64,000 nt of DNA. It comes from an uncultured Bacilli bacterium. GTDB taxonomy: Bacteria > Bacillota_I > Bacilli_A > RF39 > UBA660. The stretch spans positions 15,670-79,669 of the forward strand of contig CANRIB010000003.1 in assembly GCA_947630575.1 (NCBI GenBank). Direction: 5' to 3'. The notes under the pieces are model-generated. The model was not told the origin of the DNA, made no database searches, and saw only the letters and a list, made by a program, of their open reading frames with translations. The position numbers and the translations under genes are program-made. Positions 2,715 through 59,206 of this stretch are shown piece by piece; the stretch's first letter is position 1, and the number at the start of each line of letters is the position of its first letter.

Positions 2715-3065
2715 ATGTTAAACGGAACTAGGCTTAGAGAAGTCAGAAAAAATAAAGGTTTAACACAGACACAACTAGGGGATTTAATCGGTGTTGGAAA
2801 ATCAGCAATATGCTGTTATGAAAAAGAAACACGAAACCCGACTTTAGAAGCAGTCATTGAAATGATACATGTTTTTGGAGTAAGTGCTGATTATCTTTTA
2901 GGTTCAGATTATCTTATTAAAACAAAAGAAATGACCGAATATGTCCAAATGACACGTGAAGAAATTATTTTTATTGAAGAAATCAAGAAAAATAAAATGG
3001 TTTATGAGATTTTAATGCAAGACCCTAAAAGAGGAGCAGAACTAGTAAAAAAATGGCTAAATTAA
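2715..3065 (+). CDS. XRE-family helix-turn-helix transcriptional regulator
   Basis: The N-terminus LREVRKNKGLTQTQLGDLIGVGKSAICCYEKETRNPTLE is a typical Cro/C1 HTH. A GGGAGG RBS is present. Confidence 0.8.
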   Translation: MLNGTRLREVRKNKGLTQTQLGDLIGVGKSAICCYEKETRNPTLEAVIEMIHVFGVSADYLLGSDYLIKTKEMTEYVQMTREEIIFIEEIKKNKMVYEILMQDPKRGAELVKKWLN

Positions 3066-3102
3066 GTTTTAGCTTTTTTTATTTTTCATATAATTTTTTT
3101 AG

Positions 3103-3897
3103 GTGATAACTTTGAAGAAATATTATCAATTATTTGGTTTAACCATAATTATGCTTTTTAGCTTTTACTATACAGAGCAAATTGCCACCTTAGTTTTAAA
3201 CAAAAATCCTTTAATGATTAAAATAAATAAAGAAAAAGAAAACTATAATATTAAAAGTGTTAATGCTATAATTGAAGGAGATTATATTATTCCCGGTCTA
3301 AATGGTTTAGAAGTAAATGCCCGAGATTCTTTTTATCGTATGCAAAATATTGATGCTTTTAATGAATATTTTTTAGTATTCAATCAAATAAAACCTCAAA
3401 TCTCATTAAACAACCATAAAGATAAAATAATTAAACAAGGCAATAAAACCCAAAAAAAAGTAAGTTTTATTCTAGAAGAAAATAAAGAACTAGAAAATTA
3501 TTTTATAAATAATAATATTAAAGCTAATATCTTAGTTAAATTAGATACATATCAAAAAAATAACTTCTTAGAAAGTATTAACAATGACTTAACTAACTTT
3601 AAAGCTTTAGAAAATAATCTTAACTTAAATAAAGAAAATAAAAATATATGTGTTCTAAATTATGAATTAAAAGATATATGTAAAAAATATCGCAACTATC
3701 TAGTTGAACCAACTTTAACCCTAACTAATAATAATTTAATTGAAATAAAAAAAGACCTTCAAAATGGCTCCATAATTTTACTTAAAAATACTGCCAAGCT
3801 TTCAGATTTAAAAATATTAATTAAAGAAATAAACTTTAAAAATCTAAGTATAGTCCCATTAAGTGAACTAATAAGCGAAGAAAATAAAGCAAAATAA
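3103..3897 (+). CDS. membrane-anchored hypothetical protein, possibly a degenerate polysaccharide-deacetylase-like fold
   Basis: N-terminal TM segment (FGLTIIMLFSFYY). There is weak resemblance to NodB-type sporulation deacetylases (GSIILLK..., ...VPLSELI), but the catalytic motifs are not visible. Confidence 0.35.
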   Translation: MITLKKYYQLFGLTIIMLFSFYYTEQIATLVLNKNPLMIKINKEKENYNIKSVNAIIEGDYIIPGLNGLEVNARDSFYRMQNIDAFNEYFLVFNQIKPQISLNNHKDKIIKQGNKTQKKVSFILEENKELENYFINNNIKANILVKLDTYQKNNFLESINNDLTNFKALENNLNLNKENKNICVLNYELKDICKKYRNYLVEPTLTLTNNNLIEIKKDLQNGSIILLKNTAKLSDLKILIKEINFKNLSIVPLSELISEENKAK

Positions 3898-4089
3898 AAA
3901 GCGAGACACAAACATAAATGAGGGGAAATACTTGCTAAATGAATTAATAAAATGAATTTTGGCAATGAACATATTAAATTTTTAAAATAGCAAGTAAGGG
4001 AGTTGCCTCGCTTAAAACCAGTATATTATACTAACTGCAATTTGGTAAAGAATAAAATTAACAAAAAACAACAATAATAAACATATAAA

Positions 4090-4533
4090 CTAAATAGATT
4101 CATCCACTTTCCCCAGTAAATAATCAGCAGAAACTTTATATGTTTTACATATCGCATAAAGATAAAAAGTAGAAACTAAATTACTACCTCTTTCATACAT
4201 TGCAATAGACGATTGAGTAGTTTTCAATATTTCTGCTAATTTTTCTTGTGTAATTTTATTACTTTTTCTCCAGTCTTTAAGTCTTTTTCCAATCAAAACT
4301 TTATCATTATTTATTTTTTCAAAAGTTAATTCTTTTTTAGAAGTTAAACCAAACATATAATCCATTGAAACATGATAATAATTACATAACTTAATTAAAT
4401 ATTTAAGAGGCATAATAAAACACTCGCTCTCATAATGCGTATAGGTTATTTCATTAATTCCTAAAACTTTAGCAATATCTTTTTGCAACAAATTTTTATT
4501 AATTCTAAGTTCTTTCAAAGTTTCAGCATACAT
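4090..4533 (-). CDS. tandem (double) XRE-type HTH transcriptional regulator
   Basis: Two HTH units are present (LKELRINKNLLQKDIAKVLGINEITYTHYE and LKDWRKSNKITQEKLAEILKTTQSSIAMYE). The start is moved to MYAETL, which has an AGGTGA RBS. The gene is divergent from the 4702 gene. Confidence 0.75.
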   Translation of the reverse strand: MYAETLKELRINKNLLQKDIAKVLGINEITYTHYESECFIMPLKYLIKLCNYYHVSMDYMFGLTSKKELTFEKINNDKVLIGKRLKDWRKSNKITQEKLAEILKTTQSSIAMYERGSNLVSTFYLYAICKTYKVSADYLLGKVDESI

Positions 4534-4701
4534 AGTTATCACCTGATTTAATTTTCTCATTAAACAAATTCCAAAAAAATATAACCGTTAAAACTATGAT
4601 ATTTTTCTTGACTTTTGACATTTGCTAGATTATAATTTAAGCATAAGTTAGAAATTTCTAATATGATTGATAATAAGTTAATTATAAAGAAGGGAAGATT
4701 A

Positions 4702-6117
4702 ATGAAAGTAGAGAAGTTAAGTAAAAGAAAAAGTAAGAGAATAATATTAGTTATCACAATAATAGTATTGCTAGTAGGAATAATATATATAACAAATAGC
4801 AAAGCAAAATATCAAATAACCAAAAGTGTACAAATAGTTAATGGTAATGTTAATTATAGTTTAGCAGATTTAAATGTGTTAGCATTACAAGTACAAGATA
4901 GTAAAGGTAGTGAAACATATAATCAAGTAGAAACAGTGCCAATTGGTAATTATAAAGTAAATGTAGATAAAAGTTATTGCAAATATCCAGGAGATAATCT
5001 AGAGCATAAAGATATACCAATGGAATATAAAAATAATAGAGTTAGTATAAGTATAAACAAAAAGGGAACAAAATGTTATATATATTTAGATGTAGCAAGC
5101 ACTAAAAAAGTAGAAACAGCATTAGGAACTATAGATGTTAATTTATATATACCAGATTTTAATAAAACATCATGTGAAGATGGCTGTGAAGAAGCAACCA
5201 ATGGAATATATGAAGGAGAAGAAAATGGATTACCAACATATTATTTCCGAGGAACAGTAGATAATAACTATGTATTATTTGCAAATATGTATTGGCGCAT
5301 CATCCGAATTAATAGCAATGGTTCAATCAGAATTATTTATAATGGTTCTACACCAGGAGCAACAGGAAAAGCAACACAACTAAATAATGGAGAAGCGCAA
5401 ACATTTAGTAAAGATGCTAAAAACGACGACAATGCTTATGTAGGATATATGTATGGAGAAACTAGTCAAGCGCAAAGTCTAGATGGCTACAATGCAACTC
5501 ATGCAAACACTCATGATAGTGGAATAAAAGAATATATAGATAATTGGTATAAAAATGTATTATCAAAAGCAAAAAATAATGAAAAAAATGCAACAGAATA
5601 TATAGACATAGAAGCGGGATTTTGTGGAGATAGAACACCATTTCAATTTGATGGGATAAGTGTAACAACCAAACCAGATAAAAATGAATATGGAGCAGGA
5701 ACAACACCAACATATTATGGAGCATGGTATAGAAGAGATAGATCACATCAACTAACATTTGATTGTCCAAATGTATCAAATGACTTGTATACAGTAAGTG
5801 GAGCAAAAACTGGAAATCATGCTTTAACTAATCCAATAGGTTTAATAACAGCAGACGAAGTAATGTATGCAGGAGGACAACATAAAATTAATTCTGAATA
5901 CTGGTTATATACAGGAGAAGCAGGCTATTGGACCATGTCTTCGTCTAGCTTTAACAAAAATCCAGCTTTAGCTACCATACTGCATGTTAGTTCGGATGGC
6001 ACTCTGGGAGGCGACTACGTGAGCACAAAGCGTGGTGTGCGTCCTGTAATAAATTTGAAGGCTAATACTAAATTTACAGGAAGTGGAACAACAGATAGTC
6101 CATTTGTAGTTCAATAA
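4702..6117 (+). CDS. exported/membrane-anchored protein, paralog family member A1 (DUF6273-like C-terminal domain)
   Basis: N-terminal basic stretch plus TM (KRKSKRIILVITIIVLLVGIIY), with GAAGGGA RBS before the MKVEKL start. The C-terminal roughly 330 aa look about three-quarters identical by eye to the 56234..58081 product (YYFRGTVDNNYVLFANMYWRIIRINSNGSIRIIY, NPIGLITADEV, VRPVINLKAN). Confidence 0.75.
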   Translation: MKVEKLSKRKSKRIILVITIIVLLVGIIYITNSKAKYQITKSVQIVNGNVNYSLADLNVLALQVQDSKGSETYNQVETVPIGNYKVNVDKSYCKYPGDNLEHKDIPMEYKNNRVSISINKKGTKCYIYLDVASTKKVETALGTIDVNLYIPDFNKTSCEDGCEEATNGIYEGEENGLPTYYFRGTVDNNYVLFANMYWRIIRINSNGSIRIIYNGSTPGATGKATQLNNGEAQTFSKDAKNDDNAYVGYMYGETSQAQSLDGYNATHANTHDSGIKEYIDNWYKNVLSKAKNNEKNATEYIDIEAGFCGDRTPFQFDGISVTTKPDKNEYGAGTTPTYYGAWYRRDRSHQLTFDCPNVSNDLYTVSGAKTGNHALTNPIGLITADEVMYAGGQHKINSEYWLYTGEAGYWTMSSSSFNKNPALATILHVSSDGTLGGDYVSTKRGVRPVINLKANTKFTGSGTTDSPFVVQ

Positions 6118-6380
6118 TCTAATAATTTAAAATCCTTGCCTAAGTCGCTCTAAACTTATTCTTAGGCAAGATTAAATTCCATGCGAGGATATTCTCCTCG
6201 TCTTTTTTATTTATATAAATTAAAAAAATCAAATTATTCCCCATAATAAAACCTTATTAAAGGCTTATTATTAACAATAATTTGACATTTACTATTTTTT
6301 ATGTTATTTTTATTCTGCAAGGCACACCTTAGGGGGTTCTTGGAGCTTGCCACAATCTTCCAATGAAGGGAGTGGTTATT

Positions 6381-12078: not shown

Positions 12079-13971
12079 ATGGAAAAAGAATACAGGGTGA
12101 GTTGGTTAAAAGTCTTCAGTGTTACACTAGTTATATTTATAATAATAGGAATAATATTTTTTATTTATCCCAAAAATAAAAATAAAACTCAGACTGCAAC
12201 AGCAACCTACATAACTAATATTAATTTAATGAAAGAAGCTGGATTTGAATATTTTCAAGGTTCTAATTTGCCAGAAAAAATTGGTTCTTCATATGAAATG
12301 ACTTTAGGCGAAATGATTGATAGCAAACTAGTAATGGAATTTGTTGATGAAAAAGGTAAAAGTTGCAATTTAAATGAAAGCTATATTAAAACTACTAAGA
12401 CTTTAGATAATGAATACGCTATGAAAGTATATCTAAGTTGTGATAGTAAAAGTGATTATATTGTAACATCAATCGCCAATAATGTTGTTTGCACCAATTG
12501 TGAATTAGCCCAAAATGTTGATACATCTACAAATAATGTAACTGATAATTCTTCTGAAGAATATTATGACAATAATTATGATAAAAATGGTAAATATATA
12601 GGTTCAACTAATACAACATCTAGTACAACTAATAATAAAAATACAAGCAGTACCAATAACTATTACTATAATACATATAATTATAATACTAACACTAATA
12701 ACAATACAAATAACAATAATAATTATAATAATTGTAATAATGCTAATTGTTATTGCACTGATAACTGTGAGAGCAATGTTTATTATTCAGTTAATTTTGA
12801 TTCAGCAGGCGGTTCATATGTTGCAAGACAATTAGTAAAAGCGGGAGAAACTGCGGATTATCGTATTACAACTAGAAGTGGCTATGACTTCTTAGGCTGG
12901 TATTTAAATGGTCAAAAATATGACTTTAATACTCCAGTAACTCAAAAAATAACTTTAGTAGCAAAATGGGGCAAAGCCGATACTAATCGTTATCAAGTTA
13001 GATTTAATCCTAACAATGGTGAAAATAGTACAGTTACTACTGTTGAAGATGGCGATACTGTTGGAAGACCAAACAATCCATATCGTAAATGTTATCGTTT
13101 CTTAGGTTGGTATTTAAATGGTGTCAAATATGATTTTAGTCGACCTGTATATGGTGATATTGTTTTAGAAGCTAAATGGGAAGACGATGGTACATGTCAT
13201 AATAAAACATACACAGTTAAATTTAACAGTGAAGGTGGTTCAAGTGTTAAAACTCAAACTGTAAATGAAGGAGAAAGAGCATATAAACCAAGCAATCCTA
13301 CCAAAAGTGGTTATACTTTCATTGGTTGGATGGACAAATATGGAAATATCTTCAACTTTAACAATAGAATATATGAAAATACAACTTTATATGCTGAATG
13401 GGAAAAGAACGAAACAAAATATAACAAATATTGTAAAATTAGTGAAGACCGCATTTATTCTACCGGATACGTTGGTAAAGTAGATATTGGCAATGTAACA
13501 TCTAAAAATTTTGCTTATACTTTACAATATTACAAAAATAATGTTACTTCTATGAAAGTAATAGATTATGGAAATATTTCATCTTTACAAGAATACAACA
13601 ATGCTTATAACTATTGGAAAAATAAAGGCAATGGAGTATTATCTATGGTTGGTGGTTCTGGAACCGGAATCGATGCTGGAAGTGGCTCAAGTTTAAAAGC
13701 ACATGCTTTAAAAATTAATAATATGAATCCTACAGTATCATATAGTTATCGCAATGGAAATAATTGGTATTTCAATGTTAATGTCAGATTAAATAATTTA
13801 AATAATATAGTTAATACTACACCATTCTATACAAGTAGCACATATTATGTTTACTTTACTCCATTATATTTTGATATTGAATATACTGATTTAAACAATT
13901 GTGAAACTGATTTAGCAAGTAAATCAAGTAATTATCGTAATTATGAAATAGTTGATACATTTTATCGCTAA
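12079..13971 (+). CDS. membrane-anchored surface protein with three Listeria-Bacteroides (Flg_new / InlB B-type) repeats
   Basis: N-terminal TM, then an N/T/Y low-complexity tract. Three repeats follow the pattern Y.V.F...GG......V..G.....P....GY.F.GW......YDF...V.....L.A.W. Confidence 0.7.
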   Translation: MEKEYRVSWLKVFSVTLVIFIIIGIIFFIYPKNKNKTQTATATYITNINLMKEAGFEYFQGSNLPEKIGSSYEMTLGEMIDSKLVMEFVDEKGKSCNLNESYIKTTKTLDNEYAMKVYLSCDSKSDYIVTSIANNVVCTNCELAQNVDTSTNNVTDNSSEEYYDNNYDKNGKYIGSTNTTSSTTNNKNTSSTNNYYYNTYNYNTNTNNNTNNNNNYNNCNNANCYCTDNCESNVYYSVNFDSAGGSYVARQLVKAGETADYRITTRSGYDFLGWYLNGQKYDFNTPVTQKITLVAKWGKADTNRYQVRFNPNNGENSTVTTVEDGDTVGRPNNPYRKCYRFLGWYLNGVKYDFSRPVYGDIVLEAKWEDDGTCHNKTYTVKFNSEGGSSVKTQTVNEGERAYKPSNPTKSGYTFIGWMDKYGNIFNFNNRIYENTTLYAEWEKNETKYNKYCKISEDRIYSTGYVGKVDIGNVTSKNFAYTLQYYKNNVTSMKVIDYGNISSLQEYNNAYNYWKNKGNGVLSMVGGSGTGIDAGSGSSLKAHALKINNMNPTVSYSYRNGNNWYFNVNVRLNNLNNIVNTTPFYTSSTYYVYFTPLYFDIEYTDLNNCETDLASKSSNYRNYEIVDTFYR

Positions 13972-47059: not shown

Positions 47060-47257
47060 TTATTCATTCTTATAAAAATTTAAATCATCAGTTGATAAAT
47101 TAAGAAGCGCAAACTCTATACATTCATTTAGTATTCTATTAATAGATAAATTTGAAGATATAGATAATTCTTCTACTTTTTGCAAAGTAGATAACTTAAG
47201 TCTTATTGTTTTTAAAACAGTTTTCTCTTCTGCAGTAGGCAATTTAAATTTTGGCAT
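47060..47257 (-). CDS. small putative ribbon-helix-helix DNA-binding protein (65 aa)
   Basis: Start moved to MPKFKL, which has an AGGAGTG RBS. The pattern KTIRLKLS (strand), TLQKVEELS (helix), SINRILNECIEFALLNL (helix) fits an RHH fold. The gene is divergent from the 47378 gene. Confidence 0.4.
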   Translation of the reverse strand: MPKFKLPTAEEKTVLKTIRLKLSTLQKVEELSISSNLSINRILNECIEFALLNLSTDDLNFYKNE

Positions 47258-47377: not shown

Positions 47378-49231
47378 ATGCAAAAAAAAATAAAAAATTT
47401 ATTTATTATTGAAGGAATAGTACTATTAATAATCCTATCTATTGGTATTGGGTATGCTTTTTTATCAACAAGCGATAAACAAGAATTAGCAAATACTTTT
47501 ACAAGTGGATGTTTAAATATAACTATTGAAAATGAATCTTCTTCAATTAATTTAAATAACCAAATACCAATCACAGACATAGAAGGATTAGAAAAAGACA
47601 ATTATAGTTTTAAAATTCATAATACCTGTAAAAATAGTACTAATTATCAAATAAATTTAGAAAGCTTAAATAAAACTGAAAATACTTTAGACATCAAATA
47701 TGTAAAGGTATCAATTTCTAGCAATACCATGGATAACATTATAACTAAATTAAGTGATAATGATAAAGCAGAAAATTTAATTGTAAAATCTTACGATTCA
47801 AGAACTTTGTATTCAGGAATATTAGAAGGCGAAGCAACTAAAGAATTCACTTTAAAAGAATGGATAGATTATGATACAACTGTAGAACAAGGAGCAAGCA
47901 AAACTTATCAATCTCAAATAAATGTAATTGCAGGAACAAACTTTAATGTGTCTAACACACCAGAAATTCAATATACATTTAAAGATGGTTTATATATAGG
48001 AAAAATTACAGGAGATGCAACAACAGGCAAATACTGCATAACTACTGCCAATAAATGTGAACCATCGACAAATTTAGACATAGAAGAAAAAACTGCTAAA
48101 ATAGAAATAGGAAATATAAAAGAAAAAAATATGGTATGCACTTCACTTGGCGATAAAAGAACATATTGTAGTAACCCAAATACAAAAGGAATAGTTATTT
48201 TGGCTACATTAAATGGAGAACCATCAAAAGTTTTTTATGAAAAAGAAAGTGGATATACACCAATAAATATAGAGTGTACTAATGGAGTAAAAGCTTCATT
48301 TGACTACAATAAATGGAGTATAAAAATAGATGCTATACAAGATTCTACAACTTGTACAGTAGATTTTAAAGAAAATATAAATCAAAATTTTAATACATAT
48401 CTTAAAAGTAAACAATGCACTGCAGAAGAAATAAAAACAGATGAAGGAGCAAAAGATTGCTTGGTAAATGAAAATGGATACAGATATGAAGGAAGTGACC
48501 CAAATAATTATGTAATGTTTAATAATGAATTATGGCGTGTAATAGGTGTATTTAATACTACATTAAGTAATGGTTCAACAAAACAAGATTTAGTAAAATT
48601 AATAAGAAATACTCCTATAGGAGCGTTAGCATGGGATGGCAATAGCAAAAATGTATGGAACAATTCAACATTAAAAAAACAATTAAATAGTGGATATTTA
48701 AATAGCCAAGACACAACATGTAATGGATATTCAACAAATATAATGAGAAATTGCAAATTTAGTGCTATAGGAATAAAGGAAGAAGCAAAAGAAAAAATAG
48801 AAGATGTAACATGGAATTTAAGAGGGCCAAGCAATAATAACATAACAATAAATGATATATATAATAGTGAATTAACAGGTGGCATAGCTAAAGATGGAGA
48901 TGCAACCGGAACAGGTAAAATAGGATTAATTTACGCTAGTGATTATGCGTATGCAGCACTTGCAAATAATTGTTCAAGAACAACTTACATAAAATCTTAT
49001 ACAACACAAACATGTAGTGGAAATAATTGGATTTATAATGGTGATGATTTATTTACTATTACGGCTGAAGCAAATCAAAGCGTAAGTGTAATTGTTATTT
49101 TGCCTCCTGGTAGTATAAGCCCTAATTATACCATGCGTACTTTTGGTGTTATTCCATCTGTATATTTAAAATCAAATATACAAGTTAAAGGTGGAATTGG
49201 TACAATAGAAAATCCATATACATTAAATTAA
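47378..49231 (+). CDS. exported protein, paralog family member B1 (TasA/camelysin-like signal region + DUF6273-like C-terminal domain)
   Basis: The N-terminus MQKKIKNLFIIEGIVLLIILSIGIGYAFLSTSDKQELANTFTSGCLNI resembles SipW-dependent signal peptides. The C-terminal half is homologous to 49248..50378 (YRYEGSDPNNYVMFNNELWRVIGVFN, IPSVYLKSN). Confidence 0.7.
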   Translation: MQKKIKNLFIIEGIVLLIILSIGIGYAFLSTSDKQELANTFTSGCLNITIENESSSINLNNQIPITDIEGLEKDNYSFKIHNTCKNSTNYQINLESLNKTENTLDIKYVKVSISSNTMDNIITKLSDNDKAENLIVKSYDSRTLYSGILEGEATKEFTLKEWIDYDTTVEQGASKTYQSQINVIAGTNFNVSNTPEIQYTFKDGLYIGKITGDATTGKYCITTANKCEPSTNLDIEEKTAKIEIGNIKEKNMVCTSLGDKRTYCSNPNTKGIVILATLNGEPSKVFYEKESGYTPINIECTNGVKASFDYNKWSIKIDAIQDSTTCTVDFKENINQNFNTYLKSKQCTAEEIKTDEGAKDCLVNENGYRYEGSDPNNYVMFNNELWRVIGVFNTTLSNGSTKQDLVKLIRNTPIGALAWDGNSKNVWNNSTLKKQLNSGYLNSQDTTCNGYSTNIMRNCKFSAIGIKEEAKEKIEDVTWNLRGPSNNNITINDIYNSELTGGIAKDGDATGTGKIGLIYASDYAYAALANNCSRTTYIKSYTTQTCSGNNWIYNGDDLFTITAEANQSVSVIVILPPGSISPNYTMRTFGVIPSVYLKSNIQVKGGIGTIENPYTLN

Positions 49232-49247: not shown

Positions 49248-50378
49248 ATGAAAAAAAAAATAATAGTATTTTTATTAATAGCAATAGTATTATTTATTAA
49301 TAATAAAGAACAATTTAATAATAATAGTAATAAATATCAAATAAAGACTTATATAGATGGAAAGTTAGCAATGGAATTACCAAAAAGTAGTGATGGAGTT
49401 AAATTTAAAAAAGCATTGTGTACTAATGGAACTGCAACTTTTGATAGTTCAAGCTGGAGATTAGAAGTAAAAGACTTAACAAAAGATGCAATCTGTACAA
49501 TAGAATTTGAGAATAGTACAGAAAAAAATTTTAACGAATTTTTAAAAGGTAAACAGTGCACTGCAGAAGAAATAAAAACAGATGAAGGAGCAAAAGATTG
49601 CTTGGTAAATGAAAATGGATATAGATATGAAGGAAGCGACCCAAATAATTATGTAATGTTTAATAATGAATTATGGCGTGTAATAGGTGTATTTAATACT
49701 ACATTAAGTGATGGTTTAACAAAACAAGATTTAGTAAAATTGATAAGATATGAACCAATAAGTGGCTTAGCATGGAATGCGAATATGAAAAATACGTGGA
49801 ATGATTCTCCATTAAAAAGTAAATTAAATAATGAATATTTAAATAGTCAAGATAGCCTATGTAATATAGGAAAAGAAATTACAAGAAATTGTAAATTTAG
49901 TGCTATAGGAATAAAACAAGGTGCAAAGGAAAAAATAGAAAATGTAACATGGAATTTAAAAGGATATAATAAGTATACATGTGATATTACTGTAGATGTA
50001 ATGTACAATAATGAAAGACTTCTAAATGGTCTAATACCAGAAGGAGGATCAGCAACTGGAACTGGAAAAGTAGGATTGATGTACGCTAGCGATTATGGAT
50101 ATGCAGTGTTGGCAAACAGCTGTAATAGAACAATTAATCTAAATTCTTACAGTAAACAAGAATGTGGAGGAAATAATTGGTTATATAAAGATGGTAATAC
50201 ATATACTCTTGCTCCGTTAGCTGGTTCGTCAAATGTTACGGGTATTGGTTTTGATGGTAGTCTTGCTCAAACATCTTCACATGTTTCATTTGATATTTTA
50301 CCAACAATATATTTAAAATCTAATGTTAAATATATGAGCGGTACTGGAACTTACTTTAATCCATTTATAATTAACTAA
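49248..50378 (+). CDS. exported protein, paralog family member B2
   Basis: N-terminal TM or signal (KKIIVFLLIAIVLFI). It shares near-identical stretches with B1 at both protein and DNA level. GAAGGAA RBS is present. Confidence 0.7.
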   Translation: MKKKIIVFLLIAIVLFINNKEQFNNNSNKYQIKTYIDGKLAMELPKSSDGVKFKKALCTNGTATFDSSSWRLEVKDLTKDAICTIEFENSTEKNFNEFLKGKQCTAEEIKTDEGAKDCLVNENGYRYEGSDPNNYVMFNNELWRVIGVFNTTLSDGLTKQDLVKLIRYEPISGLAWNANMKNTWNDSPLKSKLNNEYLNSQDSLCNIGKEITRNCKFSAIGIKQGAKEKIENVTWNLKGYNKYTCDITVDVMYNNERLLNGLIPEGGSATGTGKVGLMYASDYGYAVLANSCNRTINLNSYSKQECGGNNWLYKDGNTYTLAPLAGSSNVTGIGFDGSLAQTSSHVSFDILPTIYLKSNVKYMSGTGTYFNPFIIN

Positions 50379-50441: not shown

Positions 50442-51680
50442 AAAGTTGTGTTAAACTTTATGACTGATTAATGTATTCAGCATAAGCAACATTTAAATCA
50501 ATAGGCATTTTAATTGAAAAAATATCTTTAGTTTTTATATAATTATTGTCTATTATAATTCTTGAATAAGATTCAGTTTTTATTTTATTTAACATGAATC
50601 TTTTTTTCATAGTAAAAATATAAACAAACCAATCTAAATATTCTTGTAAGTGTCTAGTTGATACACCTCTAAATTTCCTGAACCAAGTTTCCAGTTGAGA
50701 GTGAACTCCATTTATTTCTGATATATTATAAATATCATTTTTATGAAAACCAGATGGAATAGCATTTAATACTAAATTGTTGCTTTTACAAAATTCTTGA
50801 TAAGCACTCGCACTATCGGCCGTTATTGATTTGGCTTTGTTTATTTTCTGACCAAGCGATTGGTTTAGCATATCAGTTGTACATCTTCCTAAACCGACTA
50901 TCTTTAATAATAGATTATCTTCTTCGTCTATACTTGAAACTACACATATTTTATGATGACTTATGCCTCTGTAAGGTGAACTCGTTGATGTTCTTTTTTT
51001 AGAATATCTTGGCATGTTTTTTGTTTTTGTCCCTTTTAAATTAATTGAAAAATACTTTTCATCTGACTGTATTTCTCCAGATAAATTAATACTTTCTATA
51101 AAATGTTTTAAAGCATATAAAACTTTATGCCTTAATCTAAAAGATGTTAAAAGAGAAATATTATTTTCTTCAGCTATTCTTCTTAAACTAAAACTATTTA
51201 GTAAATTATCTATAACATTCCTCCATATTTCAAATGATAATTTACTATGACAAATTATTGTATCAGTTGTTTGTGAAGAAGTTACTCCATATCCACTACA
51301 AATATATTTTTGAATGCCACTTTTAGTTGTTCCATTTTTATATAATTTACAACCACATTTTTCACAGAACATTTCTTCTTGTTTAAAGTTAGATATGATT
51401 TTTGAATTTGAATTTTTTTTAGAACATAAATCAGATAAATTTTCTAATAAATAATTTTTAAATTCAATGATTGTTACTGGATCTAATTCTTTTAATAATT
51501 CCTCTATTTTCATACTACATAAAAATATCCTTAATCAGCTAGCTCCAATCAGTATAATATCGCCAAATAAAAACTGTAGATGAACTAGCTGATTAAGGAT
51601 ACTTCCTTTCTACAATTTTTATTTGGCACTTCTATTATACCACTTTTTTGTTTATCAGTCATAAAGTTTAACACAACTTT
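50442..51680 (-). mobile_element. IS1595-family insertion sequence (1239 bp) with perfect 27-bp terminal inverted repeats
   Basis: IRL 50442-50468 (aaagttgtgttaaactttatgactgat) is the exact reverse complement of IRR 51654-51680. The element encloses a single transposase ORF. Confidence 0.8.
50458..51513 (-). CDS. IS1595-family (ISXO2-like) transposase
   Basis: N-terminal zinc ribbon (CEKCGCKLYKNGTTKSGIQKYIC), a DDE-type core (SDEKYF..., ADSASAY) and the C-terminal block GVHSQLETWFRKFRGVSTRHLQEYLDWFVY. Confidence 0.8.
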   Translation of the reverse strand: MKIEELLKELDPVTIIEFKNYLLENLSDLCSKKNSNSKIISNFKQEEMFCEKCGCKLYKNGTTKSGIQKYICSGYGVTSSQTTDTIICHSKLSFEIWRNVIDNLLNSFSLRRIAEENNISLLTSFRLRHKVLYALKHFIESINLSGEIQSDEKYFSINLKGTKTKNMPRYSKKRTSTSSPYRGISHHKICVVSSIDEEDNLLLKIVGLGRCTTDMLNQSLGQKINKAKSITADSASAYQEFCKSNNLVLNAIPSGFHKNDIYNISEINGVHSQLETWFRKFRGVSTRHLQEYLDWFVYIFTMKKRFMLNKIKTESYSRIIIDNNYIKTKDIFSIKMPIDLNVAYAEYINQS

Positions 51681-54736: not shown

Positions 54737-54781
54737 GTATATCTTTTTTTTATTTGTACAAATTAATAAAAGGTGTTATAT

Positions 54782-55510
54782 ATGAAAAAAGTGTTTATTG
54801 ATTCTTCTAAAATAATTAAAGATAATTTACTTAAAATAGACGAAGTTAACCATCATGGTTATAGTATTACTCATTTTAAAGTAAACGAAACTAATGAAAA
54901 GCTCTTAAAAAGAATAAAAGGGGACTATTACACGATTAATTTTGACTATGTAAGTTTACAAAAAAAATCTAAACAAATAAAAAAAGAATTAATGAAAATA
55001 CTAAATAATCTTTTTAAAAATGAAAATCCTCCTAAACCCTTAATAATAGGCTTAGGTAATTCTAGTATTACCTGTGATAGTTTAGGTGTTAATGTCACGA
55101 ATAAAGTTATGGCCACCAATCATTTTAATGATTTTTTAAATATTCCTAAAGTGGCTTTATTTAATCCTGAAGTAACTGAAAAAACAGGTATAAGCTCTTT
55201 TAGTTTAATTGAAATGGTCGTAAAAAAATTAAAGCCCACCGTGATAGTTATGATAGATACTTTAGCAACAAATAATGAGAATAATCTAAATAATTGTATT
55301 GAAATAAATAATACCGGTATTATTCCGGGAAGTGCTATTAAAGAAAATAAAAAAATAGATGCTAAAACATTTAATATTCCTGTAATAGCAATCGGAGTAC
55401 CATTAGTATTAGAATTTAATAAAAATCTTTATACTACTCCCAATGTTGCAAATATAATCGAAATAACTAGTAATATTATTAGTAGTGCTCTAAACGATTT
55501 ATTCTTTTAA
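54782..55510 (+). CDS. gpr: germination protease GPR (short form)
   Basis: Collinear GPR blocks are present (LIIGLGNSSITCDSLG, VIVMIDTLAT, INNTGIIPGSAI, IPVIAIGVPLVL), including both catalytic-Asp contexts. It is 242 aa, compared with about 370 aa typically. Confidence 0.75.
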   Translation: MKKVFIDSSKIIKDNLLKIDEVNHHGYSITHFKVNETNEKLLKRIKGDYYTINFDYVSLQKKSKQIKKELMKILNNLFKNENPPKPLIIGLGNSSITCDSLGVNVTNKVMATNHFNDFLNIPKVALFNPEVTEKTGISSFSLIEMVVKKLKPTVIVMIDTLATNNENNLNNCIEINNTGIIPGSAIKENKKIDAKTFNIPVIAIGVPLVLEFNKNLYTTPNVANIIEITSNIISSALNDLFF

Positions 55511-55934: not shown

Positions 55935-56150
55935 TTATTTTTGTGCTTCAATAATAATATTTAAATCAAATTCTTTAGCAATGTTAATTAATGTTTCAAA
56001 AGTATAATTAACAGTTCCATATTCATACTTCTCAATAGAACTTTTGCTAACATTAATTTTTTTAGCAAATTCTTCTTGAGTTAAATTTAAACTTTGTCTT
56101 ATAAATTTTAGAATATCATTAGCTTTATATTTTTTTGCATCTATTTTCAT
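55935..56150 (-). CDS. XRE-family HTH transcriptional regulator
   Basis: ILKFIRQSLNLTQEEFAKKINVSKSSIEKYEYG is a typical HTH. The start is moved to MKIDAKK, which has a GGGTGA RBS. The gene is divergent from the 56234 gene. Confidence 0.75.
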   Translation of the reverse strand: MKIDAKKYKANDILKFIRQSLNLTQEEFAKKINVSKSSIEKYEYGTVNYTFETLINIAKEFDLNIIIEAQK

Positions 56151-56161
56151 TAAATCACCCG

Positions 56162-56216
56162 TTGACATCGTAACATATTACGTATATAATATTAATGAAA
56201 GTCGTAATATATTACG
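56162..56216 (+). promoter_or_regulatory. promoter of family member A2 with two palindromic operator-like sites
   Basis: TTGACA (56162-56167), 17 nt, then TATAAT (56185-56190). cgtaaCATAttacg (56169-56182) fills the spacer, and the perfect palindrome cgtaatatattacg (56203-56216) lies just downstream. Confidence 0.5.
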
Positions 56217-56233
56217 AGTAAAGGAAGGGCAAA

Positions 56234-58081
56234 ATGAAAAAGAATAAAAGAGTAATAATATTGTTAAGTGTATTAATATTAGGAATAGGTGTATCTTTAG
56301 CATACTTTGTAGGTAAAACAATATTTAAGGGAACAGGAGCCACAACAGAAGGAAGAACGGCAACCATAAATGGTTCAACATTAGATATAAGTGGTAATAT
56401 AGAGTTTAAAGATATAGATATATATCCAGGACATCAAACATTATCTAAAGTAACAGCGACTGCAACAGGTAATAATGAACTTATAGCCTATAACTTAACA
56501 TGGATAGGAACAAATGATTTAAGTACTAATTTAAAATATAAAGTATATGTATCAGAAGAAAATAAAGATATAGAATTAAATTGTGAAAAGAAAAAGAAAG
56601 TAGTAAATGGAGCCCAACAATTAAATGAAGTATGTACATCAAATATAGAAGAATTAGGAGAACCAATAAGTGAAGGAGAGATATCAGAAATAACAGAAGA
56701 AGAACAAACAATAAAAATAACTAATACCGAGTTTATAACAGCAAAAGAAAAAGGAACAAAGAAATATTATTATATCATAGTAGAATATCCAGATAAAGAA
56801 GATCAAAGTATAGATATAGGAGAAGGCTTTAAAGGAAAAGTATATGGAGAGATAAGTAATACTAAAGCAGATATAAACCTAGTGGCATTTTATCAAGAAA
56901 CAGAAGAAGGCAAATATGAAGAAGTAGAAGAAATACCGAAAGAGGGATATGTATTAAATCAAAAAGAAACAAAATGTAATAATGAAGAAGTGAAAGTGAG
57001 AATAGAGAATAATGAGATAATATTAACAAATGTAAGCAAAAGTGGAACAGCTTGTTATTTGTATTTTTCTAAACCAACATCAGATAAAACATTGGCAGCA
57101 TTAAAATTAACATTGAATAATGAAATTCCAGATTTTAGTAAAACAAGTTGTGAGGAGGGATGTGACGAATCAACCAATGGAGTGTTTAAAGGAGAAGAAA
57201 ATGGACAACCAACATATTATTTCCGAGGCACAGTAGATAATAACTATGTATTATTTGCAGGATATTATTGGCGAATCATCCGAATAAATAGTAATGGCTC
57301 AATTCGTATAATTTATAGTGGAACCACAGCCGGAGCAACAGGAAAATCAGCTCAATTAAATAATGGAATAACTCAAGTATTTAATAGAGTAGATGATGAT
57401 AATGCATATGTAGGATATATGTATGGGGAAACTAGTCAACCACAAAATGCAGCAGGATATGATGCAACCCATAAAAATACAAATAATAGCGTAACAAAAA
57501 CCTACATAGATAATTGGTATACAAATACATTGTCAAAAGCAAAAAATAATGGAAAAAACGCAACAGAATATATAGATACAGAAGCAGGTTTTTGTGGAGA
57601 TAGAACACCATATGAATATGGTAATTTATCGATAGATTCACAGCCTGACAATAAAAAGTATGGCATAGGAAAAATAACAACATATTATGGAGCATATTAT
57701 AGAATAAATAAATCGCATCAACCAACATTTGATTGTCCAAATCCTTCAAATAATTTGTACACAGTAAGTGGAGCAGAAACAGGAAATAAGTCTTTAACAA
57801 ATCCAATAGGCTTAATCACCGCAGATGAAGTAATATATGCAGGAGGGCAAACAAAAGAAAACAGATATTACTGGTTGTATACAGGCGGAGAAGCTTATTG
57901 GACAATATCACCATATTATTTTGACGGGACTTATGCTGTTATATCTAATGTACATTTGGATGGAGGTATTAATTATAATCGAGCAGATAATGGAAAGAGC
58001 ATTCGACCTGTTATAAATCTTAAGGCAGATGTATCAATAACAGGAAGTGGCACAATAGATTCTCCATATGAAATATCTTAA
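56234..58081 (+). CDS. exported protein, paralog family member A2 (TasA/camelysin-like signal region + DUF6273-like C-terminal domain)
   Basis: The N-terminus is MKKNKRVIILLSVLILGIGVSLAYFVGKT...GSTLDISG. The C-terminal roughly 330 aa are paralogous to 4702..6117. Confidence 0.75.
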   Translation: MKKNKRVIILLSVLILGIGVSLAYFVGKTIFKGTGATTEGRTATINGSTLDISGNIEFKDIDIYPGHQTLSKVTATATGNNELIAYNLTWIGTNDLSTNLKYKVYVSEENKDIELNCEKKKKVVNGAQQLNEVCTSNIEELGEPISEGEISEITEEEQTIKITNTEFITAKEKGTKKYYYIIVEYPDKEDQSIDIGEGFKGKVYGEISNTKADINLVAFYQETEEGKYEEVEEIPKEGYVLNQKETKCNNEEVKVRIENNEIILTNVSKSGTACYLYFSKPTSDKTLAALKLTLNNEIPDFSKTSCEEGCDESTNGVFKGEENGQPTYYFRGTVDNNYVLFAGYYWRIIRINSNGSIRIIYSGTTAGATGKSAQLNNGITQVFNRVDDDNAYVGYMYGETSQPQNAAGYDATHKNTNNSVTKTYIDNWYTNTLSKAKNNGKNATEYIDTEAGFCGDRTPYEYGNLSIDSQPDNKKYGIGKITTYYGAYYRINKSHQPTFDCPNPSNNLYTVSGAETGNKSLTNPIGLITADEVIYAGGQTKENRYYWLYTGGEAYWTISPYYFDGTYAVISNVHLDGGINYNRADNGKSIRPVINLKADVSITGSGTIDSPYEIS

Positions 58082-58291
58082 AGTAAAATAAATTCCTTGT
58101 CTATTATGCTTATCCTTTTTATTAATAGACAAGATTATGGGTTACCTTTACCCAACATAATACATGAATAGAAAGTTTTTACTTTCTGTTCTTTTAATTT
58201 AAAAAATAATTATCTTAAAAATAAACATTAATATTATACTTCGACAAGTTTTTCTAAACTTATTATATATAATATACTAAAGGTGAATTAT

Positions 58292-59206
58292 ATGCGTCGA
58301 TTTATAACTAAAAGAAAAGTAAAAATCCCCAGATATAAAATATTATCAATAAAAATAGTATCATTTTTACTTCTATTTTCATTTATATACATAATATTTA
58401 GTATCATAATTACCAAAGATAATTCTCCACTTTTAAATATTATAGGCAGCAATTCTTTTGGTAATAATTTAAGTAGTTATAACATATATAAAAATAACAA
58501 ACAACTATTTTATCAAAACAGTTTTGGCTCATATTCCAGTACCACCAAAACAAGTTACAATAGTTCTAACTTACATGAATTAATATTATCTAAACCTCTT
58601 ATATACATTTATAATACTTTCCAAACTGAAAAATATAAAAGTACAAATAATAATGATTATAATGTTAATTCCGTTATAAGTGCCGCGAGTTTAATACTAT
58701 CCGAATATTTAAAAAAAGAAGGTATTAAATCTCTAGTAGAACTAGAAAATATTGATAAACTAGCTCAAGAAAAGAATTATAGTTCTAACTATCTTACATC
58801 TAAGTATCTTTTAAATAAAGCCAAAAAAGAAAATCCCAGTCTAAATTATTATTTTGATCTTCAAATATCTTCCGCCTCCTATTCTGAAACAACCTATGAA
58901 ACCCCAGAAAAAAATTATGCTAAAATAAGATTTATTATTGGTACCAATTATGATTCTTATAAAGAAAATCTTAAATTTGCAACTTTACTTAACACTAAAT
59001 TAACCATCCAAAATTCCAATTTATCTCGCGGAATATCTTTAGAAGGTGGAACTGATAATGAAGGAATATATAACGAAGACATAAACTCTCATGTTTTATT
59101 AATTGAGGTTGGTGGTAAAGAAAATACTATCGCGGAAGTTAATAACACTTTAAAAGTTTTTGCCAGTATTATAAAGGAGGCCATCAATGAAGAAGAAAAA
59201 AAGTAA
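58292..59206 (+). CDS. spoIIP: stage II sporulation protein P
   Basis: N-terminal TM, with the SpoIIP blocks PLIYIYNTFQTEKY and HVLLIEVGGKENTIAEVNNT. Confidence 0.8.
   Translation: MRRFITKRKVKIPRYKILSIKIVSFLLLFSFIYIIFSIIITKDNSPLLNIIGSNSFGNNLSSYNIYKNNKQLFYQNSFGSYSSTTKTSYNSSNLHELILSKPLIYIYNTFQTEKYKSTNNNDYNVNSVISAASLILSEYLKKEGIKSLVELENIDKLAQEKNYSSNYLTSKYLLNKAKKENPSLNYYFDLQISSASYSETTYETPEKNYAKIRFIIGTNYDSYKENLKFATLLNTKLTIQNSNLSRGISLEGGTDNEGIYNEDINSHVLLIEVGGKENTIAEVNNTLKVFASIIKEAINEEEKK

Follow-up and report, generated by a model that had tools for sequence, protein, structure and literature searches.

What does a small, repeatedly encountered pair of divergent genes, one for a regulator and one for an exported protein, do in an uncultured gut bacterium, and how is it controlled? 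In this study, we have explored this question for the gene that we call A1 and for its divergently oriented regulator, which lie at positions 4090-6215 of a 64,000-nucleotide stretch of DNA from an uncultured Bacilli bacterium (hereafter, the window; GenBank assembly GCA_947630575.1, contig CANRIB010000003.1, positions 15,670 to 79,669 of the forward strand). A preliminary description, made from the letters alone, had presented A1 as one of four paralogs in the window that would make up a variable, individually regulated family of surface or secreted proteins with a domain of the DUF6273 type. Based on our results, we lean towards the view that A1 is exported, binds a ligand, stands under the control of a repressor and belongs to a repertoire of proteins of this kind; within this composite reading, the direction of regulation and the binding of a ligand are the weakest links.

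Results

Four paralogs share one architecture

The four open reading frames (ORFs) of the proposed family (A1, A2, B1 and B2; Table 1) are all present and homologous, as two pairs that are linked to each other by profiles. By BLASTP, A1 and A2 are 55% identical (E 1e-160) and B1 and B2 58% (E 1e-126), and the cross-pairs between A and B types have 22-24% identity over ~310 aa, with E values from 2e-4 to 5e-7. When family alignments of 79 A-type and 53 B-type sequences were compared profile against profile, the two types were joined with a probability of 99.65% (E 5.4e-25) over 361 columns, and this match spans the transmembrane segment, the two-Cys module and the C-terminal domain, in agreement with the module order that had been put forward. 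The motifs noticed earlier (NNYV.F, WR[IV]I, GL[IM].A and P..[NY]LK) are invariant columns of the four-way alignment, and the C-terminal domains align significantly in the all-against-all comparison of the paralogs. A six-frame hidden Markov model scan of the window recovered exactly four members and no fifth copy.

The family reaches far beyond the window. Our profile search of 1.84 billion representatives returned 10,944 clusters (50% identity) at E<=1e-3, 7,457 at E<=1e-10 and 4,131 at E<=1e-30. Two giant proteins, P0241 (4905 aa) and P0242 (3528 aa), have 11 and 8 matched stretches of the A profile, a repetition such as the binding modules of surface proteins typically show. The long-plus-short tandem arrangement of B1 and B2 is also present elsewhere. 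Apart from this, B-type operons of two or three paralogs (611+450+378 aa) were seen in two of the loci examined below (L085 299-4637 and L083 588-4625), and one B-type multi-paralog operon stands behind a divergent 193-aa regulator with tandem helix-turn-helix (HTH) stretches.

The large domain is an enlarged C-type-lectin-like domain

Structure prediction, proposed as a check in the preliminary description, gave a confident model of A1 that matches both an IgA peptidase (9qa6) and phage proteins of DUF6273. With the family alignment, AlphaFold2 modelled full-length A1 with a mean local confidence (pLDDT) of 90.8 and an overall confidence (pTM) of 0.83, and the large domain on its own with values of 95.9 and 0.93. 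In a Foldseek search of the PDB, 9qa6 was the sole significant match of full-length A1 (E 7e-5); it was again the top match of the domain-only model (E 2e-5, probability 1.0, 336 columns), with a TM-score of 0.38 and with the match assigned to the entry and not to particular residues, followed by 8q4e, the C-terminal domain of Legionella Lcl. Among predicted viral structures, the best matches carried the name DUF6273 and came from gut phages (E 4.7e-6 to 5e-3), their TM-scores normalised to the target being at most 0.58. Of two papers from 2025, one calls residues 31-322 of the Thomasclavelia ramosa IgA peptidase DUF6273 (PMC12402451), and the other describes this N-terminal domain as having a C-type-lectin-like core whose size is doubled by irregular extra elements, 8Q4E being the nearest structure (PMC12237041).

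The relatives of A1 point in the same direction. Pfam DUF6273 (PF19789; 172 model positions, gathering cut-off 23.5 bits) gives 18.5 bits on P0002, which is 80% identical to A1, and 24.9, 37.3, 32.4 and 28.6 bits on P0007, P0009, P0008 and P0067, with P0026 and P0040 just under the cut-off. The relatives at 40-50% identity reach 22-37 bits, covering only model positions ~111-171 of 172; those that score match A1 itself at E 1e-94 to 1e-119, and the model also scores on some B-family relatives. The proposed DUF6273 assignment thus stands at the superfamily level, through the structures, the published assignment of the IgA-peptidase N-terminal domain and the scores of relatives, and fails at the level of the Pfam model, which is silent on A1, A2, B1 and B2; because the TM-scores are modest, the evidence goes no further than the superfamily. 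On the strength of these models, A1 would represent a divergent, enlarged branch of the DUF6273 superfamily, one to which the Pfam model is mostly blind. The domain class itself is already known, without an assigned function, and the portions of the DUF6273 literature at our disposal hold no description of the architecture of A1 or of its pairing with a regulator.

Conservation along A1 is good in the strands and helices that define the fold, and indels accumulate in loops at residues 221-240, 251-260, 291-300, 311-330 and 421-440, which is the pattern to be expected if ligand specificity varies.

A1 has the features of an exported protein

The start of A1 can be placed at ATG 4702, because in a related locus (L002) an 8-nt indel breaks the frame between ATG 4663 and ATG 4702, and the sequence is conserved from 4702 onward; the longer ORF from ATG 4663 is ruled out by the same indel. 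From this start, A1 has a basic n-region (MKVEKLSKRKSKR), a hydrophobic helix (residues 11-33 in the AlphaFold model) and a conserved -3/-1 motif, with A35 at -1 in 67/79 sequences, Ser or Thr at -3 in 73/79, and K36 and Y37 in 66-67/79. This motif fits type I signal-peptidase cleavage after A35 in A1; B2 has no Ala at the -1 position. Conservation continues past the site, as K-Y-x-x-T-x-S after the -1 Ala of the A family, which suggests an additional role for that segment, and residues 35-55 form a low-confidence stretch in the model. The two Cys of the beta module, C93 and C125, are at least 90% conserved in the A family, the beta module aligns to the two-Cys module of the B family, and the two Cys of the large domain are invariant in the A family; A1 therefore fits an extracytoplasmic protein, since conserved Cys occur in both parts.

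Neither a sortase motif nor a lipobox was found in A1, which ends in ...TGSGTTDSPFVVQ and has no Cys in its first 90 residues. None of the four paralogs is matched by a PHROGs or PADLOC family, and Pfam and NCBIfam returned nothing meaningful for them; weak matches of the four proteins to Wzz, ResA and FtsL were set aside, as all fall on the hydrophobic N-terminal segment. The earlier view of an exported, variable family is supported by these data. Judged by its sequence, export of A1 appears well supported, with a cleaved signal or a signal anchor both possible, and a surface or secreted location may be predicted on the same basis.

A tandem-HTH regulator faces a conserved leader

The gene opposite A1 is, by sequence, an XRE-family (HTH_3) transcription regulator, with 77.6 bits for HTH_3 and 78.5 bits for HTH_19, two stretches each, above the Pfam cut-off. 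We did not assign it to the RstR family, given that the NCBIfam score of 82.9 passes the cut-off of 80 only by summing the two HTH stretches. Its translation probably starts at ATG 4533 (147 aa), preceded by a GGTGA Shine-Dalgarno sequence, because most homologues begin at M10 and GGTGA is conserved before that ATG; accordingly read on the other strand, ATCACC (the reverse complement of GGTGAT) is conserved upstream of M10.

On the A1 side, the promoter TTGACT-17-TATAAT described earlier was confirmed at 4608-4636; in L001 and L002, its -10 does not vary and its -35 hardly does. As a class, promoter-like sites in the region are not above shuffles (16 versus 16.1); a TTGACTTTT...TTATAAT module is repeated across many family cassettes. 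The palindrome of the preliminary description is equally real: TTAGAAATTTCTAA is a perfect 14-nt palindrome at 4648-4661, opposite the tandem-HTH XRE regulator, and starts ~12 nt 3' of the -10. An RNA-structure reading of the A1 leader was discarded, its fold being not significant (z -1.08; 26/200 shuffles fold equally well).

Regulator and leader are conserved together at related loci

A1-like proteins at 80% (L001) and 70% identity are found on other metagenome contigs among quite different genes, one near cdaA/ybbR and ftsW and the other near veg and spoVG, and both keep the divergent tandem-HTH gene directly upstream. In a three-way intergenic alignment of the window, L001 and L002, the 25-nt block with the palindrome is 100% identical while much else diverges.

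For a broader view, we fetched 80 loci from species-representative genomes, all of them uncultured gut metagenome-assembled genomes (MAGs; 'Bacilli', 'Tenericutes', 'Mycoplasma sp. CAG:776' and similar). Such species-representative genomes contain at least 586 relatives, and single MAGs account for 4-9 of the listed loci. Of the family genes with usable upstream sequence, 58/79 have a divergent HTH gene within 500 nt upstream (median gap 154 nt), and most of these divergent regulators are tandem-HTH proteins of 147-182 aa. The palindrome, at <=2 mismatches, is upstream of 24/84 family genes; 21 of the 24 stand next to a tandem-HTH gene, 3 lack a regulator beside them and not one is next to a single-HTH gene. 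A further 15 genes, all with tandem-HTH regulators, are preceded by leaders of a second class (AAGCTAGGAAA, in many cases together with ATCATA-N4-TATGAT). In single-HTH cassettes, the A2 cassette of the window among them, other long palindromes flank or overlie the promoter.

These data bear on the claim that the paralogs are individually regulated, which holds within the window and not across the family. The window has three transcription units with three divergent regulators and different palindromes: a tandem-HTH protein for A1, a single-HTH protein for A2 and, for the B1-B2 operon, a small ribbon-helix-helix-like ORF with no Pfam match and a weak match to phrog_5118 (E 0.0018). Family-wide, the same operator stands before many paralogs, several within one MAG. 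Because one operator fronts many paralogs and three cassettes keep it without an adjacent regulator, shared or cross-regulation is plausible and, as far as these sequences indicate, would be at least as likely family-wide as strict one-to-one control.

The cassette is self-contained

The region 4090-6215 is best explained as a self-contained two-gene cassette of regulator and A1. It measures ~2.1 kb and is found at differing genomic places. Compared with the 80%-identity locus (L001), homology ends right after the terminator on one side, where ~100 nt after A1 are near-identical before all likeness is lost, and at the regulator stop codon on the other. The borders of the cassette showed no terminal repeats, and beyond the regulator stop codon the loci have nothing in common. 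As a separate observation, the hairpin between the A1 stop codon and the terminator (CTTGCCTAAG...CTTAGGCAAG, 10-bp stem) is 100% identical in L001, despite only 80% protein-level identity of the coding sequence.

Table 1. Coordinates of the A1 cassette and of other family features in the window
Feature	Position	Strand	Description
Tandem-HTH XRE-family regulator	4090..4560	-	156-aa ORF; two HTH_3/HTH_19 stretches, E ~1e-22
A1 promoter TTGACT-17-TATAAT	4608..4636	+	sigma-70-type; 11/12 matches, best in region
Conserved leader block ATTAGAAATTTCTAATATGATTGAT	4647..4671	.	25 nt; includes the palindrome, the putative operator
Shine-Dalgarno region AAGGGAAG	4690..4697	+	few nt before ATG 4702; read from sequence; conserved in L001
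A1 coding sequence	4702..6117	+	471 aa; ORF list; homologues align over 100% of this form
Export signal (predicted)	4702..4806	+	residues 1-35: basic tail MKVEKLSKRKSKR, hydrophobic helix, conserved (S/T)-(K/R)-A motif, then K-Y
Two-Cys all-beta module	4873..5142	+	residues 58-147; nine strands, pLDDT >90; C93, C125
Enlarged C-type-lectin-like domain, DUF6273 superfamily	5203..6114	+	residues 168-471; alpha/beta; models, Foldseek, PF19789 matches of relatives
3' end of cassette	6135..6211	+	hairpin 6135-6170, then intrinsic terminator 6183-6201 and T-run; terminator scan
Small ORF opposite the B1-B2 operon	47060-47257	-	divergent; ribbon-helix-helix-like by eye
B1	47378-49231	+	one operon with B2
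B2	49248-50378	+	one operon with B1
IS1595-family inverted repeats	50442-50471 and 51651-51680		30 nt, 97% identical
IS1595-family transposase gene	50458-51513	-	in the insertion sequence directly downstream of B2
A2 regulator, single-HTH	55935-56168	-	divergent from A2
A2 promoter TTGACA-17-TATAAT	56162-56190	+	perfect consensus
A2 palindromes CGTAAyATATTACG	56169-56182 and 56203-56216		14 nt; one in the promoter spacer, one after the -10
A2	56234..58081	+	615 aa; paralog of A1

Discussion

The detailed comparison of A1 with its relatives offers a coherent, if conditional, picture of how this cassette could work. Homology, architecture and fold class are shown by the data, as are the conservation and joint occurrence of regulator and operator; the export topology, the repression, the binding of a ligand and the biological role are inferred from them. 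We propose that A1 is exported via its N-terminal Sec-type signal and that this signal is then either cut off after S-K-A (residue 35) or retained to anchor the protein in the membrane. On the outer side, A1 would display the two-Cys beta module together with a loop-decorated, 300-residue C-type-lectin-like domain; this lectin-like head would most likely bind a ligand of the gut environment, either a glycan or a protein, by way of the surface loops in which indels accumulate. Transcription would start from the near-consensus sigma-70 promoter, and the tandem-HTH XRE protein most likely represses this promoter via the palindrome TTAGAAATTTCTAA just 3' of the -10, a predicted operator at which the bound regulator would block either the promoter or early elongation. 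As the regulator has no sensor domain, derepression must come from elsewhere; no antirepressor is known. With its many copies in each genome of uncultured gut Bacilli, the regulator-operator-gene module could produce a variable repertoire of exported binding proteins.

Several of our results weigh against this proposal. For the domain, PF19789 does not match A1, A2, B1 or B2, either as whole proteins (E<=0.01) or as C-terminal domains (E<=10), neither family alignment found a sequence relative in profile searches of the PDB, even at E<=10, the TM-score to 9qa6 is modest, and canonical C-type lectin domains do not match A1 significantly (Foldseek E ~0.3-4, probability <=0.33). The papers on the IgA peptidase state that the function of its N-terminal domain is not established and that the domain is dispensable for IgA cleavage (PMC12237041, PMC12402451). 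Because of this, the ligand binding that we ascribe to A1 is drawn from the phage DUF6273 proteins, which are described as targets of diversity-generating retroelements with a presumed receptor-binding role (PMC10743442, PMC11792537, bioRxiv 10.1101/2024.10.15.618418). For the regulation, perfect 14-nt palindromes are as frequent in the window as in shuffles (15 versus 14.8), with near-matches likewise at chance, and the palindrome as a statistical oddity by itself was rejected; we retain it despite this chance frequency because it is conserved across related loci. The promoter scan of the region identified no promoter for the regulator itself. Finally, no clear regulator residues separate the two operator classes, identity being 45-53% both within and between them, and since the regulators of both classes are inseparable by sequence, the element that is truly recognised may be TATAAGyTAGrAA, which both share, and not the palindrome.

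These last points lead to a different view of the regulator, namely that the tandem-HTH protein is an activator or a mere autoregulator, and that the palindrome serves its divergent promoter or an unrelated leader function. The ATTATAAT sequence around the -10 reads identically on both strands, so the promoters of A1 and of the regulator may overlap; the scan found no promoter for the regulator, and the operator classes do not follow the regulator sequence. We nevertheless regard this view as unlikely: between the -10 and the Shine-Dalgarno sequence, the palindrome has the usual position of a roadblock repressor site, the A1 promoter should need no activation because it is near consensus, and three cassettes retain the operator before a family gene that has no regulator gene beside it. 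A distinct idea concerns the protein and not its control. A1-type proteins could be subunits of a fibre or pilus-like polymer built by TasA-style donor-strand exchange, with lectin heads lining the fibre; each subunit would insert its post-signal segment KYxxTxSIxLVNGTINY into the beta module of the one that follows, and the B operons would encode major and minor subunits. Residues 31-60 equal the folded core in conservation, yet 35-55 are modelled as disordered in the monomer, and tandem operons of 611+450+378 aa and 617+376 aa exist. After the helix, the long paralogs A2 and B1 have an A followed by (Y/F)... and then [ST]G.L[DN]I, which we take to be TasA-like, and an XRE regulator beside an operon recalls SinR and tapA-sipW-tasA. 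The NCBIfam SipW-signal and Pfam camelysin/TasA models, however, score on none of the four N-termini (E<=10) or whole proteins (E<=0.01), and a fibre of this kind seems to us quite improbable.

We give very little weight to the possibility that the cassette is what remains of a phage or serves in interaction with phages, for example a receptor-binding protein under a phage-type repressor or a device for superinfection exclusion or defence. This would agree with the presumed role of retroelement-targeted DUF6273 in gut phages (see above), with the DUF6273 proteins that are the best viral structural matches, and with the scores of the regulator on phage repressor families. Nevertheless, PHROGs and PADLOC families are silent on all four proteins, the flanks are housekeeping genes (RNase J, gpr, spoIIP, rpsT, addA), and A1 has an N-terminal membrane signal, whereas virion proteins have none; the window also lacks a template/variable repeat pair. 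That A1 might itself be a retroelement target was rejected on that last result, obtained by self-BLASTN of the window, with no scan aimed at reverse transcriptase made. It is just as hard to believe that the large domain is an envelope-acting enzyme and not a binding module. The A family does have invariant polar residues (C308, D310, R344, C355 and E386), and A1 may remain tethered to the membrane beneath the wall; but their conservation does not extend from the A to the B family, no enzyme family or structure was matched, and the Cys residues are more simply a disulfide pair. The exported binding protein under a repressor remains the reading that we prefer.

Comparison with known systems helps to situate this preferred reading. 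The closest relative in structure is the N-terminal domain of IgAse/ThomasA (9QA6, residues 31-322), which resembles the A1 domain in size (~290 versus ~300 aa), shares 8Q4E/8q4e with it as a neighbour, and also comes from a gut Firmicute, T. ramosa. There are clear differences: identity to A1 is 12-13%, profile searches give no sequence match and the TM-score is 0.38. The IgAse domain heads a sortase-anchored metallopeptidase at its N-terminus, while that of A1 is the C-terminal head of a small protein without a peptidase. The zinc ligands of IgAse are D78, H90 and C126. With PF19789, which includes the phage 'tentaclins' and Mtd-like proteins, A1 shares the WR[VI][IL] and RP.[IL] end motifs. 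In PMC10743442, phage DUF6273 is said to have a C-type-lectin-like fold and to be combined with Ig-like domains. Unlike PF19789, the A1 domain is nearly twice as long, and its relatives match only the last third of the model; the C-terminal stretch is hypervariable in phage DUF6273 and among the most conserved parts in the A1 family. DUF1566, with the Legionella Lcl C-terminal domain (8Q4E), and canonical C-type lectins have the same core fold class and provide the next-best structural matches, DUF1566 phage proteins also being found among the viral ones, but these matches are not significant (E 0.3-3) and the A1 domain is much larger. On the regulatory side, pairs of an XRE repressor and its target, such as SinR with tapA-sipW-tasA or the controller proteins of restriction-modification systems, likewise place a small HTH_3 protein beside its presumed target, with a palindromic site on or after a strong promoter and an exported structural or adhesive protein as target. 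Unlike these, the A1 regulator combines two HTH domains in one chain and lacks a partner or a sensor domain, and the module is repeated genome-wide with shared operators.

DUF6273 is a large family without known function, with members among gut bacteria, in an enzyme that cleaves IgA and among the hypervariable proteins with which gut phages bind receptors. Our findings define a divergent branch of it, largely missed by Pfam, with ~11,000 clusters at 50% identity and a fixed architecture. Importantly, this branch is unusual in having a dedicated regulator and a conserved operator, which give an experimental handle on the timing of protein production, as a recombinant head domain would on the ligand. 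The family is expanded in uncultured, small-genome gut Bacilli, whose interaction with host and community is nearly uncharted. At the speculative end, and with clear doubts on our part, the cassettes might form a genome-wide switchboard in which regulators of different cassettes cross-repress and only a subset of paralogs is displayed at any one time, and the proteins might also polymerise into lectin-decorated fibres via the N-terminal strand. If this were true, dozens of exported lectin-like proteins per genome would stand behind sensor-less tandem-HTH repressors with shared operators, and reduced-genome gut Bacilli would have a form of surface variation based on transcription factors.

The remaining features of the window concern its wider context. 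G+C content is ~27%, and housekeeping and sporulation genes are present (RNase J, AddA, rpsT, gpr, spoIIP and MurG); the Rfam scan returned one tRNA and nothing else. We looked for expression data, and the public runs with this sequence are rabbit-gut metagenomes, all DNA. The A2 cassette (55935-58081) sits between gpr (54773-55510) and spoIIP (58283-59206), which we take to be adjoining genes in Bacillus subtilis. An insertion sequence of the IS1595 family (50442-51680) lies immediately 3' of B2. Self-BLASTN of the window recovered the paralog pairs, the insertion-sequence ends and one unrelated short 40-nt repeat pair (12889-13138) only.

Additional observations were made on individual cassettes of the survey. 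Those of the second leader class (L007, L018, L031, L032, L036, L040, L047 and others) have, in the stretch ~40-15 nt ahead of the start codon, an invariant AAATGAAG and after it a 5-6-bp hairpin immediately 5' of the Shine-Dalgarno sequence, with one compensatory C-G to U-A pair; the alignment-fold energy of this hairpin is weak (-0.63 kcal/mol). Several of these loci have ATG-AAG and then an immediate stop, a two-codon mini-ORF. One locus (L070 1469-4497) is syntenic with 2715-6117 of the window: its XRE protein matches the ORF at 2715-3065 (E 7e-64), and it has a homologue of the 264-aa membrane protein and then a family gene with the exact operator, the 335 nt between the last two genes being too short for a regulator gene. 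In another (L010 401-1852, minus strand), three consecutive tandem-HTH regulator genes lie upstream of a single family gene with the class-1 operator.

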